NCBI GenBank assembly: GCA_023245565.1
Contig: JAHFKB010000005.1
Location: forward strand, 1 to 39,973
From: an archaeon
Lineage (GTDB): Archaea; Nanobdellota; Nanobdellia; SCGC-AAA011-G17; GW2011-AR18
Direction of reading: 5' to 3'
Length of the DNA stretch: 39,973 bases
Within the stretch, counting starts at the first letter, position 1; the number at the start of each line of letters is the position of its first letter. Of this stretch, positions 1 to 31,108 are shown one piece after another. Position numbers and translations under genes: made by a program. The notes beneath the pieces are model-generated. The model saw only the letters and a program-made list of their open reading frames with translations. It did not search any database and was not told where the DNA came from.

Positions 1-68
1 TCGAACCTGCGTAGACCTGAGTCACTAGGTCCTAAGCCTAGCCCGTTTGGCCACTCCGGCACCCCCGC
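1..68 (-). tRNA. tRNA-Leu (anticodon UAG), 5' portion only; the 3' end lies beyond the window edge
   Basis: The reverse complement reads GCGGGGG-UG-CCG-GAGUGGCCAAA-CGG-G-CUAGG-CUUAGGA-CCUAG, then a long variable arm (UGACUCAGGUCUAC), then GCAGG-UUCGA. It has an acceptor stem, a D arm, an anticodon loop with UAG and a class II variable arm. It is locally GC-rich in an AT-rich background. Confidence 0.85.
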
Positions 69-118
69 ATAAATTAAAAACAAAAGAACTTACTATAAAA
101 GATTTATTATTTTAAAAA

Positions 119-4896: not shown

Positions 4897-5931
4897 ATGG
4901 GAGAATTGTTTGATAAGATATTAAAGTCAGATGAATCTATTTTCCTTAATCCTCAATTCTTAGATTATGATTATCAACCAAAATTAATTCCATTTAGAGA
5001 AACACAGCAGCAGCAGATAGCAACTTCTATTAAACCATTATTACAAAGAAGAAATGGTAAAAATGTTGTTGTTGTTGGAAAACCTGGAGTAGGTAAAACT
5101 GTTTCTTTAAAACATGTTTTAAATGAATTAAAAGATGATTATGGTGATGAAGTTTTTTGTTTATATGTTAACTGCTGGAAAAGAGATACTTCTTTTAAAA
5201 TTATTTCTGATATATGCCAGCAAGTAAATTATAAATGGACTCATGGTAAAAATTTTGATGAATTATTAGAAGCTGCTGCTGAAATAATTAATGAAAAATC
5301 TATAGTTGTTGTTCTAGATGAAGCTGATAAATTACAAGATCATAATATTATTTATAATATATTAGAAGATTTTCATAGAAGGGGCATTATATTAATAACA
5401 AATGATAATGGTTTTCTTGCAAAAATTGATGCTAGAATAAGATCAAGATTAATTCCTGATATTTTAGAATTTAAACCTTATAATTTAGAACAAACTAGTT
5501 TTATATTAAAACAAAGAGCAGAATATGCTTTTGTTTCTGGTACTTTAGATGAAGATTCTTTAAATATTATAGTTAAAAAAACTTTTGAACTTGGAGATAT
5601 AAGAGCAGGTTTATTTTTACTTAAACAATCTGGTGAAATTGCAGAAAATAAAAGTTCTAAAAAAATTACTATAGAATTTGTACAAGAAGCAATGATTTCT
5701 TTAATAGATTTAGACAAAGATTTAGACTTAGATTCTTTATTAGAAATAATTAAAGAAAATACTGGTAAAAATAAAAATGATTTATTTAAGATTTATGAAG
5801 AAAAATGCGGGAAGAGCATTAGAACTTTTCAAAGAAAAATAAATGAACTTGAAAAATTGGGAAGAATTAAACATGGTGAAGAAGTTGATGAATCTGGATT
5901 TAAACAAACTGTTATTCAATATTTAGATTAA
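4897..5931 (+). CDS. cdc6: Orc1/Cdc6 replication initiator
   Basis: 344 aa. Walker A is GKPGVGKT, Walker B is VVVLDEADKL, sensor regions are present, and the C-terminus looks like a winged helix. Confidence 0.94.
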   Translation: MGELFDKILKSDESIFLNPQFLDYDYQPKLIPFRETQQQQIATSIKPLLQRRNGKNVVVVGKPGVGKTVSLKHVLNELKDDYGDEVFCLYVNCWKRDTSFKIISDICQQVNYKWTHGKNFDELLEAAAEIINEKSIVVVLDEADKLQDHNIIYNILEDFHRRGIILITNDNGFLAKIDARIRSRLIPDILEFKPYNLEQTSFILKQRAEYAFVSGTLDEDSLNIIVKKTFELGDIRAGLFLLKQSGEIAENKSSKKITIEFVQEAMISLIDLDKDLDLDSLLEIIKENTGKNKNDLFKIYEEKCGKSIRTFQRKINELEKLGRIKHGEEVDESGFKQTVIQYLD

Positions 5932-5940
5932 ATCTTTTAA

Positions 5941-6067
5941 TTTTTGTTAATGAAAATTTATCTTATATTCTAGAAAATATACTTTATTATTCAAATGACG
6001 ACGACACGACAAGGTGGACGCGCATAGGATATTTAAAGGAAAAATTCTAATATTATTTTATGAAAGG
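5941..6067 (+). repeat. 127-bp promoter/leader repeat, copy 1 (partner at 18509..18635)
   Basis: Hand alignment shows a 52-bp core (5963..6014 vs 18530..18581) with one mismatch, and flanks roughly 80-85% identical. It contains a TATA-like TTATATTC and a conserved 10-codon mini-ORF (5995..6027). Confidence 0.85.
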
Positions 6068-6079
6068 AGGTATTCAAAA

Positions 6080-6175
6080 ATGCTGCCAATAGAATTTGAA
6101 TTAGATAAAATATCTATTTTATTTAGTGATCAATTAAGGAGATTGCCTTTAATTGAAAGAAAAAGGAGGAATTAA
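6080..6175 (+). CDS. 31-aa micro-ORF with a strong Shine-Dalgarno sequence (MLPIEFELDKISILFSDQLRRLPLIERKRRN)
   Basis: The ATG is preceded by AAAGGAGGTATTCAAAA. The ORF is too short to appear in the ORF track. Confidence 0.35.
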   Translation: MLPIEFELDKISILFSDQLRRLPLIERKRRN

Positions 6176-6279: not shown

Positions 6280-7275
6280 TTATCTATAAGGTCCTAATGA
6301 CTTATTTAATTTTCTTTCTTTTTTAAAATTAAAAAATTTTGCGCGACGCAACCCAAGCACATCATCCACGACGCCAGGCCCCCTGTCCAAATCCAAGCTC
6401 AACTCAGAGCCCCTGCCACGGATGGCGGCAATTTCATTATTTCTTGGATACCAATAATAATATTCTCCTTTTTCTTTTAATTTTTCAGGATAACCATATT
6501 CATTTATATCTTCTTTGTCAAACCGTCCATCTTGTTGTATTAAATTAATTTCTATTTCTTTATTATTTATTTTTAATGTATTTTTATTTATTATTTGATC
6601 TTCTAACCATTCTGCATATTTACTTTTCATTTCATTTAAAGTTTCTTGAGCTTCTGTATCTCCTTGAGATTCTTTTTCTTTTAACCAAGGAATAAAAACT
6701 AAGTACATTATACCTGCTGTTAATAATTTATAACCTTGATCTTTTACTAATTTTCTTCCATTTATTTGATTTATATTTCTTTTAAATATTTTCTTTTCTA
6801 CTAATAAACCATCTGCTGAATCTAAATCCATATAATTTGCTTTTTTTAAAAAATTTCTATATTTTGGAGTTGTGTGACTAATAATATATTCTTTTGGAAT
6901 TATATATAATTCTTCTTCTATTTCTTTAGTAAAGAAAAAATCTACATTATTAAATAATTCTTTTATTTTAGACAAATAAACTTTTACTGCTTCTTGTTGA
7001 TTATTATTTAATTTAAAATATAATTCAAATTTAGGTTCATTGTATTCTAAATTTAGTATTTGTTTTACATATTCAAAATCTTTAATATCTATTGTTTTAG
7101 ATTTTTCTATAATTTCTAAGGCCTTTTTTAAATCTTCTAAATAATTAACTTTGTATTCTTCTTTTACTTCTAAATTAGCTATGAAAATTATATATTCTTT
7201 TAATAATTTTTTTAAATTTCTATTAGCAGTAATGTCTTTTGTTAATATTTTTTTAAGTCTAGTAAGTATATCCAT
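6280..7275 (-). CDS. hypothetical protein with an FGE/DUF1566-like (C-type lectin fold) C-terminus carrying a GC-rich codon island
   Basis: 331-aa ORF. The C-terminus YYYWYPRN..IRGRGS...DRGPGVVDDVLGLRRAKFF is homologous to the C-terminus of ORF 27416..28507. See findings. Confidence 0.7.
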   Translation of the reverse strand: MDILTRLKKILTKDITANRNLKKLLKEYIIFIANLEVKEEYKVNYLEDLKKALEIIEKSKTIDIKDFEYVKQILNLEYNEPKFELYFKLNNNQQEAVKVYLSKIKELFNNVDFFFTKEIEEELYIIPKEYIISHTTPKYRNFLKKANYMDLDSADGLLVEKKIFKRNINQINGRKLVKDQGYKLLTAGIMYLVFIPWLKEKESQGDTEAQETLNEMKSKYAEWLEDQIINKNTLKINNKEIEINLIQQDGRFDKEDINEYGYPEKLKEKGEYYYWYPRNNEIAAIRGRGSELSLDLDRGPGVVDDVLGLRRAKFFNFKKERKLNKSLGPYR

Positions 7276-16337: not shown

Positions 16338-16402
16338 GTTGTAAGTCAGATTAATGATATGCCTAAAGATTTCAAAGGTATGAAAGTTCCTGTTAAAATT
16401 AT
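16338..16402 (+). repeat. 65-bp duplicated internal fragment of rpl11 (source 16959..17023)
   Basis: GTTGTAAGTCAGATTAATGATATG[C/A]CTAAAGATTTCAAAGGTATGAAAGTTCCTGTTAAAATTAT is identical to the rpl11 coding sequence except for one base. Confidence 0.9.
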
Positions 16403-16853: not shown

Positions 16854-17552
16854 ATGGGAAAGAAACAAACAGTTGATGCTTTAGTTGATGGTGGAAAAGC
16901 TAGTGCAGGCCCACCAATTGGAAGTTCACTTGGACCTTTAAAAGTTAATATAGGTCAAGTTGTAAGTCAGATTAATGATATGACTAAAGATTTCAAAGGT
17001 ATGAAAGTTCCTGTTAAAATTATTGTTGATACTGAAGACAAATCATTTACAATTACAATAGGTACTCCTCCTGCTACTCAATTACTTATGAAAGAAATTG
17101 GGATAGAGAAAGGTTCTGGTGAACCACATATAAATAAATCTGGAGTTATTTCTTTTGAGCAAGTAATAAAAGTTGCTAAGATGAAATCTTCTTCTTTAAT
17201 TGTTAATAATTTAAAATCTGCAGTAAAAACAATTGTTGGAAGTTGTCAATCTGCTGGAGTATTAATTGATGGAAAAGATGCAAGAGATATTTTAAAAGAA
17301 ATTAATCAAGGAAAATATGATGCTTTAATAAAATCAGAAAAGACAGAAACTGATCCTGAAAAGATGAAAGAGCTTGAAGCTATGGGTAAAGAATTAGAAT
17401 CTAAGAAAAAACAAGTTGAAAAACAAAAAGCAGAAGTTAAAGCAGCAAAAGAAGCTGAGACGGCAGCAAAAGCAGCAGCTAATGCACCTGCGGCAGGAAC
17501 AGCACCAGCAACTGGAACTGCGCCTCCAAAGAAAGAACCTGCTAAGAAGTAA
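16854..17552 (+). CDS. rpl11: 50S ribosomal protein L11 with a ~70-aa Lys/Glu/Ala/Pro-rich C-terminal extension
   Basis: MGKKQTVDALVDGGKASAGPPIGSSLGPLKVNIG has the canonical L11 N-terminal domain. The track start at 16827 is TTG; I prefer the ATG at 16854. Confidence 0.94.
   Translation: MGKKQTVDALVDGGKASAGPPIGSSLGPLKVNIGQVVSQINDMTKDFKGMKVPVKIIVDTEDKSFTITIGTPPATQLLMKEIGIEKGSGEPHINKSGVISFEQVIKVAKMKSSSLIVNNLKSAVKTIVGSCQSAGVLIDGKDARDILKEINQGKYDALIKSEKTETDPEKMKELEAMGKELESKKKQVEKQKAEVKAAKEAETAAKAAANAPAAGTAPATGTAPPKKEPAKK
16959..17023 (+). repeat. rpl11-internal copy of the 65-bp repeat (partner at 16338..16402)
   Basis: See the partner entry. Confidence 0.9.
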
Positions 17553-18478: not shown

Positions 18479-18508
18479 GTATTTATTATTTATTTTAAGT
18501 ATTTATAT

Positions 18509-18635
18509 TTTTTGTTAAGTAAAATTCATTTATATTCTAGAAAATATACTTTATTATTCAAATGATGACGACACGACAAGGAAGTTGCGCGTAGAATTTA
18601 TAAAGGAAAATTCTAATAATATTTTATTGAAAAGG
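18509..18635 (+). repeat. 127-bp promoter/leader repeat, copy 2 (partner at 5941..6067)
   Basis: See copy 1. The mini-ORF here is at 18562..18594. Confidence 0.85.
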
Positions 18636-19439
18636 TACACTATTACGCAAGAATTTAGGAATTGTATAAGATCAAACAATTATAGTATGGATCAATTATT
18701 AAATTTAACAGGCATTCAAGTACGTAATATACTTTATAAGAATAAAAGTATTAATGAAAAACATTTAAAATTATTATCAAAATTTTTGAAAATAAAAAAT
18801 ATTAAACTGAAAGAAATAGAATTTGACAATACTAAAAATTTAGGAAAATATGCTTACACAGAACCTATAATTTTAACAAGAAATAAGAAAATTTTATCTG
18901 AATTTATAGGCATAATGTTAGGTGACGGAAATATTTATAAGAATACAACAAATATTGCTTTTGATAAAAGAAATAAAAGTTATATTAAATATACTAAAAT
19001 ATTAGCTAGGAATTGTTTTGGTGTAAATTTTAAATTTAAAGAATTAAAGAAAAATAATGGAGCATATATCTATTTCTATAATAAATATCTTACTCAAAAT
19101 TTATTAGATTTAGGATTAAAAAGGGGGAATAAAATAAAAAACCAGTTAGGAATACCTAAATGGATAATAAAAAACCAAAAGTATTCTAAAATGTGCCTTA
19201 GGGGGCTCATAGATACAGACGGAAGTATCTTTTTTGCTAAGAGAGACAATGCTTTATATATAGATTTTACAAATCATAACCAAAAACTCATGAAAGATTT
19301 TAAATTTATTACTAAAAATTTAGGATATCCTTTTGTGAAATGTAAAGAAACTAATGTATGTTTATATCAGAAAAAAGAAGTCGTAAGATTTATTAACGAT
19401 ATTAGACCACTAAAAGGAATTAATGGGGCTATAATCTAA
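18585..19439 (+). CDS. double-motif LAGLIDADG homing endonuclease with an N-terminal HTH-like region
   Basis: There are two LAGLIDADG motifs, LSEFIGIMLGDGNI and MCLRGLIDTDGSI, about 100 aa apart. The start is uncertain: TTG at 18585, with no ATG before codon 35. The last 15 nt overlap tRNA-Pro. Confidence 0.85.
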   Translation: MRVEFIKENSNNILLKRYTITQEFRNCIRSNNYSMDQLLNLTGIQVRNILYKNKSINEKHLKLLSKFLKIKNIKLKEIEFDNTKNLGKYAYTEPIILTRNKKILSEFIGIMLGDGNIYKNTTNIAFDKRNKSYIKYTKILARNCFGVNFKFKELKKNNGAYIYFYNKYLTQNLLDLGLKRGNKIKNQLGIPKWIIKNQKYSKMCLRGLIDTDGSIFFAKRDNALYIDFTNHNQKLMKDFKFITKNLGYPFVKCKETNVCLYQKKEVVRFINDIRPLKGINGAII

Positions 19440-26606: not shown

Positions 26607-27359
26607 TTATTTAAATGCAACTTCAATATTTGATTTAATCATAGATTTAGGTCTTGCACCTGTTACTCTAGCAATTTCTTTTCCATCTTTAAACATAATA
26701 AAAGTTGGAATTCCTAAAACACTTAATCTTTGAGCTATGTTTTGATTGTCGTCAACATTTAATTTTGCAAATTTAACTTCTTTCATTTCTTTACTTAATT
26801 CTTCAAATATTGGAGACATAGCTTTACAAGGGCCGCAATTATGAGCTAAAAATCCATTTGCTATAAAATTATGATTATTTTCCATAGATATTTTCTGAAC
26901 TGATTTTAGATAAATTTCTTTAGTTTCCTTAATATTCTCCCAAGCAAGGCCTTTTGGAAGATCTTTTTCTATTTTTTCCCATTTATCTTTATCAAATTCC
27001 AGCATAACTGCGACTTTTTCATTTTTTTTTAATTCTTCAGCCTTTTTCCAACCTTTTGGCGTGAGAAATTCATGTTCATCTGTGACTTTTATTTTCCTTT
27101 CGCTCTCTGTAATAATTTCTTTACAATGTCCTAAAATATTTGATGTAAAAGATTTTTTAACTTTATCAGGAGTAATTTCTTTTCCATTATATGTTAATAA
27201 TATATCTGTATTATTTATTTCTTTAGCTAATTTAGGAATATTATCTGAAGTTAAAATTTGTGTTGATTCTTCAATACACCACTCTGCCCAAAGATCTATA
27301 ACTAAAAGTTTATTTTCTTTTATTTCTTTATTAAAATTATCTGAATTTAGTTCTAACAT
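26607..27359 (-). CDS. trxA: thioredoxin interrupted by a mini-intein at the active site
   Basis: The exteins (27 aa + 76 aa) join to give ..VIDLWAEW|CGPCKAMSPIFEEL..., a canonical WCGPC thioredoxin of 103 aa. Confidence 0.9.
   Translation of the reverse strand: MLELNSDNFNKEIKENKLLVIDLWAEWCIEESTQILTSDNIPKLAKEINNTDILLTYNGKEITPDKVKKSFTSNILGHCKEIITESERKIKVTDEHEFLTPKGWKKAEELKKNEKVAVMLEFDKDKWEKIEKDLPKGLAWENIKETKEIYLKSVQKISMENNHNFIANGFLAHNCGPCKAMSPIFEELSKEMKEVKFAKLNVDDNQNIAQRLSVLGIPTFIMFKDGKEIARVTGARPKSMIKSNIEVAFK
26838..27278 (-). mobile_element. 147-aa mini-intein (no endonuclease domain) in thioredoxin
   Basis: Block A is CIEESTQILT. Block B is KVTDEHEFLT (TxxH). Blocks F/G are VQKISMENNHNFIANGFLAHN, followed by +1 Cys. 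The coordinates were checked codon by codon. Confidence 0.85.
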
Positions 27360-27415
27360 TTTCTAATTGAAAATTTATTTCTTTATTAATCTTTTGTTTA
27401 ATTTTATGGAAATAT

Positions 27416-28507
27416 TTATTTTCTGAAAATTTTTGCAGGACGTACACCTAAATTCTTATTTGTGAAAAGCGGATCACTGCCGTAGCCTAGGTCCATACAA
27501 CCACCATAAAAATCAGCCCTGAACCTAGAGAAATCTCTATTTCTTGGAGGAAAATAATAAATTTCATGATTTTTTGATTCTTTTATAGGCAAACCTTGTG
27601 AATTACAATTTTCTAAATTAATATAACAATCTTTCATTAAACAATTATTCAATTCGGATTTGATTTCTGATATATTTGAACTTTCTTCAGGTTTAAATTT
27701 AGTAATTAAAAAAAATTTATTATTTATTTCTTCAAATCTTGCATTTAACCATTCTCCCCTAGATGGTTTTCTTTTTCCTAAAATTTCATCTAAAATAGTG
27801 TCAACTTCTTCTCTAGGAATTATATCACCATTTCCATCTAATACTTTTTCACCTGATTTTAATAATAAAACAAAATCTATAAATCTTCTTATATCTAACA
27901 TAAAGCAATCTTCTTTATTTAATAATTCTTGGCATTCATTCCAAGTTTTTCCTTTATGTTTAACTTCTTTGCTAATTAATAAACCATTGTTAGAAAAACC
28001 TCCATGTATTGCTTTAGATAAAAATATATAATTACTCAAAGATTTCTTATGTATTCTATAAATTAATTTTACTCTTTCTATAGGAATTATAAATTCAATT
28101 GATAATGTTTTTTTTAAATTTTCAATTTCTTTTTCAGCATAATCCCTTATTAAATCAATACCATAATCTTCTGCATAATTTTCATTAATATCTTTAACAT
28201 CTATTGTAATATTATCTATAAAAATAGTATTATGTTCCCTCCTATAAATCTCTATAAATTTACAATCTAAATTTATTTCAATATTAACTAGGTCTTTTTT
28301 AGGAATGAAGAATGATTCAGAAACTTTTATGAATATTATTTTTTTAATTTGATATTTTGCACCCAATTCTTGAGGAATAATTAATTGAGAAGATATATGA
28401 AATTTATAGTCTCTTGGATGGAAAATATTATTTGCTTTTTTCAAATAATCAATTAATGGCTGAGTTAATGCGTTTAATTTTAAAGGTATTTCTTTTAACG
28501 TATCCAT
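27416..28507 (-). CDS. hypothetical protein with a DUF1566/FGE-like C-terminal domain (paralog of 6280..7275)
   Basis: 363 aa. It contains KTWNECQELL..CFMLDIRRFIDFV and the C-terminal IYYFPPRN...YGGCMDLGYGSDPLFTNKNLGVRPAKIF. Confidence 0.65.
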   Translation of the reverse strand: MDTLKEIPLKLNALTQPLIDYLKKANNIFHPRDYKFHISSQLIIPQELGAKYQIKKIIFIKVSESFFIPKKDLVNIEINLDCKFIEIYRREHNTIFIDNITIDVKDINENYAEDYGIDLIRDYAEKEIENLKKTLSIEFIIPIERVKLIYRIHKKSLSNYIFLSKAIHGGFSNNGLLISKEVKHKGKTWNECQELLNKEDCFMLDIRRFIDFVLLLKSGEKVLDGNGDIIPREEVDTILDEILGKRKPSRGEWLNARFEEINNKFFLITKFKPEESSNISEIKSELNNCLMKDCYINLENCNSQGLPIKESKNHEIYYFPPRNRDFSRFRADFYGGCMDLGYGSDPLFTNKNLGVRPAKIFRK

Positions 28508-28537
28508 AATAATCTAAGAAATTAATAATATAAAAAA

Positions 28538-31108
28538 TTAACTACATTCAGAATGTCCGCAGTCTAGACATGTTGGAGAAGAACAACCATTTATGTATTC
28601 AACATTTGGAGAATAACATTTTGGACAGTGTTGTTGTTTTACTTCTATTTTTAAATCTGTTAATCTTATTTGTTCTTTATCTCCAACTTTTCCATTTTTT
28701 TCTAAGTGTCTTTTAAGAGCTAATGCAATTGCATGTGGTATTGATTCAATTCTATTAGGACCAAATCCTAGAGGACGATCTCCTTTAATTGAATTAAGAT
28801 GTTTAATTGCATTCTTTGGATCATATCCTGCTTGTATTGCTTTAGATAAAAATATTCCTAAAACAGAAGTTAAACCTGATAATTCTGTTCCTATAGGAGA
28901 GATTGAAGTAAATATTTTTGATGGGCCTTCTTTATCATGAACAATATTTATATGTAAAGGACCATTTCCTGTTTCAATCTCATAATAATCTGAAGAAACT
29001 CCTTTAGTAAAGTCTATGTCTTTTTTCTTAACTTCTTCTTTTTTTATTTGTACTGTTTTAGAAGAAGTAGACTGACTTAAATTTAAAACTTGAACTTCTT
29101 TACAACCATCTCTGTAAACAGTTACACCTTTACATCCTGCTTTGTAAGCATATAAATATGCTTCTTTAATATCTTCTACACTTACATTTTTAGACATGTT
29201 AATTGTTTTTGAAACAGCATTGTCTGTATTTCTTTGGAATCCTGCTTGATGATCAATATGTGTTCTCCAAGGAGTATCGTGAGATGATGTAAATATTCTT
29301 TGTATGTTTGTTGGAATTTCTTTTATTCCACGTACAGAGGAATGATTATCTGCAATTTTTTTTAGTAAAGTATTTTTATCTAATCCAAACCAATTATATT
29401 GTTCTGCTGTTTCTAAAAATGCAGGAACAACTTCATAATAAACATATTTTGGATCTGGTTCTTTTCCTTCTTTTAATGAATCAACTGCTTCTGCTTGAAA
29501 ACGTTTGTATGCAATTGCAAAGAAAGGCTCAATACCAGAACCTTGTAGGCCTGCTGTTATTGCAATAGTTCCAGTAGGAGCAATTGTTGTTCTTGCACAA
29601 TTTCTTGGACGTGCTACTTGTCCTCTAAAATATTCTCCTTTTTCATCATAAATACTATCTTTGAAATTATAGAAAACTCCTCTTTTTTCAGCTAGTTCTT
29701 CAGATGATTCTAGAGATTTAAGATTTATAAAACTCATAATTTCTTCTGCTAAAGTTATTGCTTCTTCTGAATCATAAGGTATTTCTAATTTAATTAACAT
29801 CTCTGCCCAACCCATGACTCCTAAACCTATACGTCTATTTCCTTTTGACATTTGTTCAATTTCTGGAAGAACATACATACTCATGTCAATTACATTATCT
29901 AAAAAATGTGTTGCTAATTTTGCTGTATATTCTAATTTTTGATAATCAACAACATATTTTGCATCTAATTTTTTTACATGATTAGAAAGATTAATACTTC
30001 CTAAAGTGCATGGTTCCCATGGAAGTAATGGTTGTTCACCGCAAGGATTTGTACTTTCTATTTGTCCTAATTTTGGTGTTGGGTTTGAATGTGTATTATT
30101 TATTCTATCAATAACAACAAAACCTGGATCTCCTGTTTCCCAAGCGCATTTTGCCATTAAATCAAACATTTCTTTTGCTTTTTCTCTACCTACAATTTTT
30201 TTTGATTTTGGACTTACTAATTCTATTTCAGAATCATTTTCAACTGCTTTGAAAAATTCTTCATCTAGAGCAACTGAAATATTAAAGTTTTGTAAAAAAC
30301 CTCTGTCTTTTGATTTAGATGTTATAAATTTTTTTATATCTGGGTGTTTGTAATACATAATACCCATATTTGCTCCTCTTCTTGTTCCACCTTGTCTTAC
30401 AACATCAGTAGATGTGTCAAAAATTCTAATAAAAGACATAGGACCTGAAGCTACTCCTTTTGTAGACTGTACTGGATCTCCTTCTGGTCTTACTTTAGAA
30501 AATGAGAAACCTGTTCCTCCACCAAATTGATGAATCATTGCCATTGCTGTTAGTGCATAATAAATTTCTTCAATAGAATCTCCTACTGGAAGAACAAAAC
30601 AAGCATGCAGGCCTTGTAGATCTCTACCTGCGTTCATTAAACAAGGAGAGTTTGGTAAAAAATCAAAATTAGATAACATATTGTAAATTTTTTCTTCTGT
30701 TTCCATTAATAATTTTGTAGCTCTTGAGTTTGTTTCAGCTAATTTTAACAAGTTTTGTTCAAATTTTTTAAAATTTGAAATTCTTTCATTTCTTTGCAAA
30801 CTTTTTAATTGAAATGATAATATGTGTGATTTTCTATCATCTTCAGAATTTAAAACTTCATATTTTATTCCATCTAAAAGTTGTTCTCTAGGAATTATTT
30901 CTTCATAATATAAATCAGCTAATGAAATATTTCTTGCAATTCTTCTTAACCATAATTCAACAGAATCTCCTCTTAAGTATTTATTTGCCATTACTTTAAG
31001 TTGATTTTCTGTAACTTTTACTTTTGGACCTTCTGAAGCTAATTCTTCAATTGATTTTAAAACTTCAAATGTAGAAACATGATCTTCTTTTTTTCTCTCA
31101 ATTTGCAT
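28538..31108 (-). CDS. nrdJ: ribonucleotide reductase, class II (adenosylcobalamin-dependent)
   Basis: 856 aa. It has NPCGEQPLLPWEPCTLGSINL, TIAPTGTI, and a C-terminal Cys-rich tail CPKC....C..C. I saw no intein. Confidence 0.95.
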   Translation of the reverse strand: MQIERKKEDHVSTFEVLKSIEELASEGPKVKVTENQLKVMANKYLRGDSVELWLRRIARNISLADLYYEEIIPREQLLDGIKYEVLNSEDDRKSHILSFQLKSLQRNERISNFKKFEQNLLKLAETNSRATKLLMETEEKIYNMLSNFDFLPNSPCLMNAGRDLQGLHACFVLPVGDSIEEIYYALTAMAMIHQFGGGTGFSFSKVRPEGDPVQSTKGVASGPMSFIRIFDTSTDVVRQGGTRRGANMGIMYYKHPDIKKFITSKSKDRGFLQNFNISVALDEEFFKAVENDSEIELVSPKSKKIVGREKAKEMFDLMAKCAWETGDPGFVVIDRINNTHSNPTPKLGQIESTNPCGEQPLLPWEPCTLGSINLSNHVKKLDAKYVVDYQKLEYTAKLATHFLDNVIDMSMYVLPEIEQMSKGNRRIGLGVMGWAEMLIKLEIPYDSEEAITLAEEIMSFINLKSLESSEELAEKRGVFYNFKDSIYDEKGEYFRGQVARPRNCARTTIAPTGTIAITAGLQGSGIEPFFAIAYKRFQAEAVDSLKEGKEPDPKYVYYEVVPAFLETAEQYNWFGLDKNTLLKKIADNHSSVRGIKEIPTNIQRIFTSSHDTPWRTHIDHQAGFQRNTDNAVSKTINMSKNVSVEDIKEAYLYAYKAGCKGVTVYRDGCKEVQVLNLSQSTSSKTVQIKKEEVKKKDIDFTKGVSSDYYEIETGNGPLHINIVHDKEGPSKIFTSISPIGTELSGLTSVLGIFLSKAIQAGYDPKNAIKHLNSIKGDRPLGFGPNRIESIPHAIALALKRHLEKNGKVGDKEQIRLTDLKIEVKQQHCPKCYSPNVEYINGCSSPTCLDCGHSECS

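Follow-up and report, generated by a model that had tools for sequence, protein, structure and literature searches.

The subject of this study is an archaeal DNA stretch of 39,973 nucleotides (contig JAHFKB010000005.1 of GenBank assembly GCA_023245565.1, positions 1 to 39,973 of the forward strand; hereafter the window), in which one minus-strand gene ends in a short GC-rich island within an AT-rich sequence. Comparison of this gene with its relatives leads us to propose, with a probability of roughly 0.87, that positions 6349-6429 on the minus strand are the variable region (VR) of a diversity-generating retroelement (DGR) target gene, in a DPANN (Woesearchaeota/Nanoarchaeia-like) genome that carries the retroelement itself, that is, the template repeat (TR) and the reverse transcriptase (RT), elsewhere. 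The features at the locus are as follows.

6280..7275, minus strand: predicted DGR target gene of 331 amino acids, an open reading frame (ORF) with homologues and with the island inside its last 50 codons
6328..6930, minus strand: C-terminal alpha/beta domain that carries the VR, residues 116-316, with a possible divergent C-type-lectin-like fold (AlphaFold2 and Foldseek)
6349..6429, minus strand: putative VR proper, 27 codons (A283-L309), homologous to template repeats (VR/TR and VR/VR comparisons)
6331..6348, minus strand: invariant 3' element, CGTCGCGCAAAATTTTTT, which encodes RRAKFF and resembles an initiation of mutagenic homing (IMH) sequence (nucleotide conservation in the family)

A GC-rich island at the end of a minus-strand gene

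The island (6341-6429) has G or C at 58 of its 89 nucleotides (65.2%) and ranks first among all stretches of that length in the window, which average 26.1% G+C with a standard deviation of 6.0%; it therefore stands about 6.5 standard deviations above the mean. Read in the coding, minus-strand orientation, it contains nine adenines. Codons 283-312 have 70% G+C at third positions (GC3) and 11.1% A, against a GC3 of 7.1% and 50.5% A in the remainder of the gene. An initial annotation, made from the letters of the window, had counted the same 58 of 89 nucleotides by hand, had read 10 of the 30 codons as NNC, had remarked on the scarcity of adenines and had placed the island within the last ~50 codons of the coding sequence; its codon reading and both counts proved exact, and the base composition and the 331-residue ORF agree with the rest. 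The composition of the island is real and far beyond chance. Its GC-rich 3' end, GGGTTGCGTCGCGC, is followed by an A/T stretch, AAAATTTTTTAATTTTAAAAAA, that forms weak A-T hairpins only. Within the VR, the codons predicted to be diversified are 285, 287-289, 291, 293, 295, 297-299, 302-306, 308 and 309.

A protein family with a hypervariable C-terminus

The target protein matches no family in Pfam or NCBIfam, and its 10 homologues in the protein database are likewise without a Pfam domain. A metagenome scan contributed 23 family loci and GTDB genomes a further 8, making 31 in all. The 8 GTDB loci lie in metagenome-assembled genomes (MAGs) of Woesearchaeota and Nanoarchaeia, where as many as three family genes share a contig, and no member was found in a viral contig collection. 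The target starts with a variable helical N-terminal part, continues from about residue 116 as a conserved alpha/beta domain, and has the VR at its C-terminal end. Throughout the family the C-terminal ~30 residues follow a fixed scaffold, R-xxx-S-x-L-x-L-x-L-xxx-P-xx-V-xxx-LG-R-R-AK, the x positions of which are hypervariable (D/G/N/S/V/W/R/Y and others). The corresponding DNA pattern is CGT NNC NGG NNC TCY GNG TTG NNC TTG NNY ... CTC GGG GTA CGT CGT GCA AAA TTT TTT. Codon positions 1 and 2 of the VRs vary and position 3 is conserved, which is the reverse of ordinary coding sequence, where third positions vary most. The equivalent of the window's 3' element (GGG GTA CGT CGY GCA AAA TTT TTT) is conserved at the nucleotide level in nearly all family VRs.

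AlphaFold2 modelled residues 116-331 with a predicted local distance difference test score (pLDDT) of 77.5 and a predicted template modelling score (pTM) of 0.79, the VR itself scoring below 50 in pLDDT. When the domain model was compared with the PDB by Foldseek, about 25 of the 37 matches were C-type-lectin-like (CD93, Mincle, CLEC-2, tetranectin and others), all of them weak (E >= 0.4, query TM-score <= 0.34). Neither the whole-protein model nor the domain model had a significant Foldseek match, and a viral structure library likewise returned nothing significant. The protein had at first been assigned to the FGE-sulfatase/DUF1566 branch of the C-type lectin (CLec) fold. For that branch no support was obtained: FGE-sulfatase and DUF1566 had no Pfam match even at E <= 10 and no NCBIfam match, and the family profile found no PDB chain at E <= 10. 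The fold itself is hinted at by the non-significant Foldseek matches, none of which reaches E < 0.4, and has no match by sequence; as the model stands, a divergent CLec-like fold for the VR-bearing domain is plausible but unproven. The diversified residues would lie among the last ~30 of this alpha/beta domain, presumably at a ligand-binding surface.

The N-terminal part of the target is not conserved across the family. Residues 1-110 (6946-7275, minus strand) are predicted to form a four-helix bundle, for which the best Foldseek matches, all non-significant, are Avd and S23-family bundles (2rld at E 0.25 and probability 0.97; 8ub7_B, an Avd chain, at E 0.39; and 4dwl). Four-helix bundles readily match one another.

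Related loci carry complete retroelement cassettes

Canonical DGR cassettes are present at five related loci (L046, L047, L048, L050 and L054), on the contigs of the closest RTs. Their order is target gene with VR, about 370 nucleotides of non-coding DNA, TR and RT. Mismatches between VR and TR fall at template adenines in 17 cases and elsewhere in none in L050/L048, with corresponding counts of 17 and 0 in L054, 14 and 1 in L046, and 13 and 1 in L047. A second VR in L048, read by eye in frame, differs from the same TR at adenines throughout. The TRs have 44-52% GC and the VRs 56-65%, and the family TRs carry GGAATAGTTCARGCA where the VRs carry the IMH-like element. A TR of the L054 type offers 24 mutable adenines, which translate into about 6e12 possible protein variants without stop codons. 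When ORFs encoded by the TRs were searched against the protein database, the sole return was the ORF of L046 itself.

The non-coding stretch holds an RT-16 RNA (Rfam RF03019), which scored 79-100 bits in the four cassettes scanned; the scan covered L047, L050, L051 and L054, with L046 left out. The RNA lies between the target VR and the TR, the place that avd occupies in the Bordetella phage element.

L047, 415-589: RT-16 RNA (Rfam RF03019)
L050, 662-840: RT-16 RNA (Rfam RF03019)
L051, 764-940: RT-16 RNA (Rfam RF03019)
L054, 267-421: RT-16 RNA (Rfam RF03019)

In L051 the RNA, a TR and an RT occur with no target gene on a contig of 2.8 kb. The RT of another locus, L008, is 360 residues long, follows a family gene directly, has the motifs LGNLTSQ and YVDD, and matches Pfam RVT_1 at 6e-22. 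The best PDB match of the RT is 8ub7_A (E 3.6e-43), an entry described in the PDB as the reverse transcriptase of a DGR ribonucleoprotein; RTs of group II introns and retrons match at about 1e-21. A search gave some 7000 relatives of the RT, and the annotation of many of them names Aenigm-, Woese-, Pace-, Micr- and Nanoarchaeota as the source. Judged by these comparisons, the RT of the related loci is of the DGR type.

Two further observations concern these loci. In L008, which comes from one metagenome, the target gene continues into the TR and RT, and the VR and the RT-16 spacer are missing. We considered, for L008 and L005, a TR lying inside a full-length paralogue, and rejected it because L050 and L048, which have an identical RT, carry the full cassette, so that L008 and L005 represent a collapse of VR and TR; this collapse is either an assembly artefact across the VR/TR repeat or a real recombination between the two. 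Separately, a 230-residue gene in L002 (4885-5577), also present in L003, is the immediate upstream neighbour of family member P0007; it lacks a Pfam match, and at its C-terminal end lies a GC-rich patch (58%, 5446-5534) that includes MRSWFVWGLDDGSDANGDYDLGVAGSRLVGV. This patch may represent a different type of VR.

Variation follows template adenines

Among 29 distinct family VRs, positions occupied by A in a TR have an entropy of 1.36 bits and all other positions 0.63 bits (Mann-Whitney p = 1.4e-7); AAC codons vary at positions 1 and 2, and their C at position 3 never changes. One gene was recovered from two metagenomes, as L054 and L004: the two copies show 100% identity in the 120 nucleotides upstream and the 50 nucleotides downstream of the VR, and 10 of the 11 differences within it fall on TR adenines. 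Several metagenome contigs start or stop less than 200 nucleotides from a VR, perhaps because heterogeneity in the population disrupts assembly there.

The window's own VR shows the same signature. Its first 54 nucleotides (6376-6429) differ from the L054 and L051 TRs at eight template adenines and one other position. Three near-identical relatives, L001, L056 and L057, come from ENA assemblies ERZ27280021 and ERZ27276474; the sample behind L057 (protein P0003) also contains a strain that is near-identical to the window organism. Between the window and L057, 83 of 90 nucleotides are identical over 6340-6429, and the seven differences, all within 6349-6429 (GGC/AAC, AGC/GGC, GAT/GTT, GGG/GTG, GTC/TTC and GTG/GAG), occupy codon positions 1 or 2 and never position 3. 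At six of the seven the L054 TR has an adenine (hypergeometric P = 0.002). The 486-nucleotide coding flank, in comparison, is 85.8% identical, with 26 third-position differences. Because the VR is better conserved than its flanks except at the predicted adenine sites, the two targets appear to have been written from one (or nearly one) TR. The initial annotation had proposed a C-terminal DGR VR, remote or orphaned, and this proposal is borne out by the homologues that sit in VR-TR-RT cassettes with adenine-specific mismatches, by the variability of the 29 VRs, which follows TR adenines, and by the six of seven differences from L057.

Identity to the closest homologue, L001, is 177/180 over 6439-6618, falls to 60/90 over 6349-6438 and returns to 26/30 over 6319-6348; these steps indicate a sharply bounded hypervariable cassette. 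The scaffolds of the two VRs also differ (GGC GTC GTG in the window and TCC TTT GTT in L001; CTT and TTG), and the N-terminal halves of the two proteins are very different despite 98% identity just upstream of the VR. This comparison suggests that one gene scaffold was rewritten from different TR lineages, or that cassettes were exchanged by recombination.

A second cassette at 27 kb

The window holds a second gene with the same arrangement.

27416..28507, minus strand: second target-like gene, 363 amino acids, a distant paralogue with the same C-terminal architecture (alignment)
27451..27540, minus strand: second hypervariable C-terminal cassette (comparison with the contig of a near-identical strain, L056)
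27425..27450, minus strand: GGTGTACGTCCTGCAAAAATTTTC, the second cassette's IMH-like element, which is conserved in both the window and L056 and resembles the family element GGGGTACGTCGTGCAAAATTTTTT

The second protein is 29% identical to the first over the last 130 residues. It belongs to a sister family with 532 representative relatives at E <= 1e-3, the alignment of which has the common pattern ...VAxFxAxS....L.C...P..S...LGVRxAKI. Against L056, the window is 100% identical over 27931-28620 (690 nucleotides) and about 97% over 27541-27930 (390 nucleotides), drops to 46/90 with a 6-nucleotide indel over 27451-27540, and recovers to 56/60 over 27391-27450. The indel and the differences at non-adenine positions point to different TRs, or to recombination, behind the second cassette.

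Proposed mechanism and alternatives

The mechanism that we propose is displayed by the related loci and extended to the window by homology. A DGR elsewhere in the genome would transcribe an RNA containing the RT-16 motif and a TR of about 81 nucleotides. The predicted TR would read approximately GCC GCC ATC CGT AAC AGG AAC TCT GAG TTG AAC TTG AAT TTG, continuing AAC AGG GAG CCT GGC ATC GTG AAT GAT GAG CTT GGR TTG. A DGR-type RT would copy this RNA, misincorporating opposite adenines, and the cDNA would replace the VR up to a 3' boundary set by the invariant IMH-like element CGT CGC GCA AAA TTT TTT. Adenines would be replaced, in the window VR mostly by G, and the G/C/T scaffold of the TR would be copied faithfully. 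The loss of adenines together with the copied scaffold would produce an adenine-poor, GC-rich island of NNC and NGG codons in a genome of 26% GC, and the unchanged copying of the scaffold would let the VR escape the drift of the genome towards AT.

Several results weigh against this reading. The 40 kb of this genome that are visible yielded neither a cognate TR nor an RT. From the VR one can derive the sequence that a cognate TR should match when A is allowed anywhere, GCCGCCATCCGTAACAGGAACTCTGAGTTGAACTTGAATTTGAACAGGGAGCCTGGCATCGTG; a 66-nucleotide pattern of this kind (VR base or A) had 0 matches in a genome collection, the VR itself included, and since the pattern fails to retrieve even the VR, the window genome is evidently absent from that collection. 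The last 27 nucleotides of the VR follow a different scaffold from the nearest TRs, with 6-7 non-adenine mismatches. No Avd-like ORF was seen beside the RTs of the related loci, in an analysis that made no systematic search for Avd. The CLec fold is weakly indicated, with Foldseek E values of 0.4 or more and low confidence for the VR in the model. DNA folds of 83 nucleotides from the window and four homologous loci gave no shared stable hairpin after the VR (z-scores of -2.1, +0.9, +1.0, -1.3 and +0.5). An IMH followed by a hairpin had been suggested for the 3' end of the island; the GC-rich 3' element is real and conserved in the family, and the A/T palindrome is not a conserved hairpin at the four homologous loci. 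A downstream hairpin is not a feature of every DGR.

The absence of a retroelement from the window leaves a choice between a target that is served in trans and one that has been orphaned. No TR turned up in the 40-kb window, either by a sliding comparison that tolerated adenines or by a search for repeats. For the RT, no six-frame ORF scored above 2.4 bits with a hidden Markov model (HMM) built from 60 DPANN DGR RTs, and tblastn was negative, all in accord with the earlier statement that the window has neither element; Rfam also gave no RT-16 match there. The inferred TR had zero matches among viral contigs. An RT would thus be more than 6 kb away from the window VR in the 3' direction or more than 32 kb away in the 5' direction, and with the TR, the RT-16 RNA and the RT all missing from the window the gene would be served remotely, in trans, or else, with lower probability, be an orphan. 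An orphaned VR would have been written by a past DGR, the TR and RT of which have since been lost from the genome, leaving the sequence frozen. Consistent with such a loss, the window lacks all three elements, most family loci in MAGs have no RT within 10 kb, and the second cassette (27451-27540), with a lower GC content of ~40-45% and numerous NNT codons, looks as though it were in decay. The first VR, on the other side, keeps a GC3 of 70% in a gene otherwise at 7%, its ORF and IMH-like element are both intact, and it matches L057 at the predicted non-adenine positions where the flanks have diverged by 14%, which argues that a TR common to both templated the two recently. DPANN genomes, moreover, abound in DGR RTs of the related-locus type, and TR-RT units without an adjoining target exist, as in L051. 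We consider an orphaned VR improbable. Within the DGR explanation a live trans target is probably correct, because the L051 contig has a TR-RT unit without a target, the 17-kb L027 contig has three family genes without an RT, and the VR of the window is intact.

If paralogues had passed on a GC-rich patch by ordinary recombination, gene conversion or horizontal transfer, a retroelement would not be needed; such a reading would draw on the mosaic character of the family, illustrated by the window and L001 with their 98% identity upstream of the VR and very different N-terminal halves. The VRs of this pair differ also at non-adenine positions, as expected of whole-cassette exchange, and the second cassette has an indel relative to L056. 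Recombination leaves unexplained, however, the adenine-specific VR/TR mismatches beside an RT, the entropy pattern of the AAC codons (positions 1 and 2 variable, 3 invariant) and the confinement of all seven L057 differences to codon positions 1 and 2, six of them on TR adenines. Cassettes exchanged between TR lineages may supplement DGR homing but cannot stand in for it, and as a sole explanation we regard recombination as very improbable. The least credible alternative, to which we assign a negligible probability, is a structured non-coding RNA gene (tRNA-like or a small RNA) through which the ORF reads by chance: GC islands in AT-rich archaeal genomes are often RNA genes, and the window's other strong GC island (1-70) resembles a truncated tRNA, yet ARAGORN found no tRNA in the island, Rfam had no match to it at gathering or permissive thresholds, its folding energy is no better than that of shuffled sequence on either strand (z = +0.45 and -0.25), and it is kept in frame as protein in dozens of homologues.

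Other features of the window

A thioredoxin gene at 26607-27359 (minus strand) contains an intein inside its WCGPC active-site motif (WAEW-C...HN-CGPCK), with Pfam matches to Thioredoxin (8e-30) and Intein_splicing (7.5e-15); the region downstream of 27000 is strongly diverged from the otherwise near-identical L056. A 153-nucleotide direct repeat occupies 5913-6065 and 18480-18632, 76% identical without gaps and ~83% with gaps, and contains the GC-richer core ATGACGACGACACGACAAGG. One copy lies upstream of a small ORF (6014..6175), and the other enters the start of a LAGLIDADG-type ORF at 18585..19439 (Pfam LAGLIDADG_3, 2e-9). A 65-nucleotide direct repeat, 98% identical (16338-16402 and 16959-17023, 621 nucleotides apart), duplicates part of the coding region for the N-terminus of ribosomal protein L11. 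The second-ranked GC island (17454-17542, 57%) corresponds to the L11 gene's C-terminal tail, rich in Ala, Pro, Gly and Thr, and is not a VR. The window starts with a GC-rich stretch (1-70, minus strand) that looks like a long-arm tRNA of which the window edge leaves the 5' part, with a Leu-like anticodon loop (CTTAGGA); it was not reported by ARAGORN.

Comparison with known systems

DGRs in DPANN archaea, remote targets, the CLec scaffold and RT-associated RNA motifs are already documented (PMC5006420, PMC5758913, PMC8144416, PMC5737381), and large surveys by design miss targets that have no retroelement on their contig (PMC8144416). Our analysis indicates that raw base composition can reveal a DGR target in an AT-rich genome even when the contig carries no retroelement, and it gives a likely role to a DPANN protein family without a Pfam or NCBIfam match. 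The two target-like genes in the window lie 21 kb apart. It is conceivable, if on balance doubtful, that unannotated CLec-like receptor genes from at least two subfamilies form a repertoire scattered through DPANN genomes, and that a DGR lacking Avd and carrying an RT-16 RNA diversifies them in trans, with several TR lineages as templates. If this were true, the DGR would be a genome-wide diversification system with many targets in an organism with a tiny genome, and not a one-gene cassette. Reduced genomes may devote several loci to retroelement-driven variation of surface or ligand-binding proteins, and several variable loci would bear on host adaptation in such likely symbionts.

The closest precedents are the DGRs of DPANN archaea and of bacteria from the candidate phyla radiation (CPR) that were described by Paul et al. 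in 2015 and 2017, here as cited in PMC5758913. The likeness extends to the host group, to an RT that in the related loci comes from a large DPANN RT family, to a C-terminal VR with AAY-rich TR codons and an invariant, IMH-encoded last strand after the VR, and to a target without a domain recognisable by sequence. The AvpA proteins of this group carry the motifs GXXVVVYAH, HPXXXPFXG and RFXGV (Handa et al. 2016, PMC5006420), which are absent from our family alignment, where the last strand is LG(V/L)R(R/L)AK. A profile of the present family finds no PDB chain, though the PDB should include the published AvpA structure. The window VR also differs from AvpA and the DPANN DGRs in lying at the very C-terminus with no TR or RT adjoining in the window.

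Remote targets are an accepted DGR arrangement, exemplified by the TvpA DGR of Treponema denticola (Wu et al. 2018, PMC5758913), in which, as we propose here, one TR-RT unit is thought to serve several scattered paralogous targets. On our side of this comparison stand two target-like genes without an RT in the window and up to three targets on related contigs. A survey found remote targets more than 100 kb away only among lineage 4 DGRs, and DGRs of the CPR set tended to have a single target (PMC5758913); the distance of the window target from its RT, in contrast, is only bounded (>6 kb 3', >32 kb 5').

With the DGR of Bordetella phage BPP-1 (Mtd, TR, Avd and bRT; PDB 8ub7) the present system would share mutagenesis from TR to VR that is specific to adenines, a VR that carries a GC-rich IMH at its 3' end, and an RT that in the related loci is closest to bRT among solved structures (E 3.6e-43). 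It differs from BPP-1 in having no Avd gene between target and RT, an RT-16 RNA upstream of the TR standing there instead, in lacking a conserved hairpin after the VR, and in being cellular and archaeal and not phage-borne, as no family member occurs in the viral contig collection.

Weinberg et al. (2017) described RT motifs in the neighbourhood of RT genes and speculated that some of them act in DGRs (PMC5737381). The window is without an RT-16 match; in four related cassettes RT-16 (RF03019) lies directly upstream of the TR and RT, which places the motif between VR and TR. That placement is observed here, and any function of the motif in these cassettes is putative. The mechanism and the host range are already known, and what is new is an unannotated target family and a target that does not lie beside its retroelement, so that the value of these findings is one of annotation and scope and not of a new principle.

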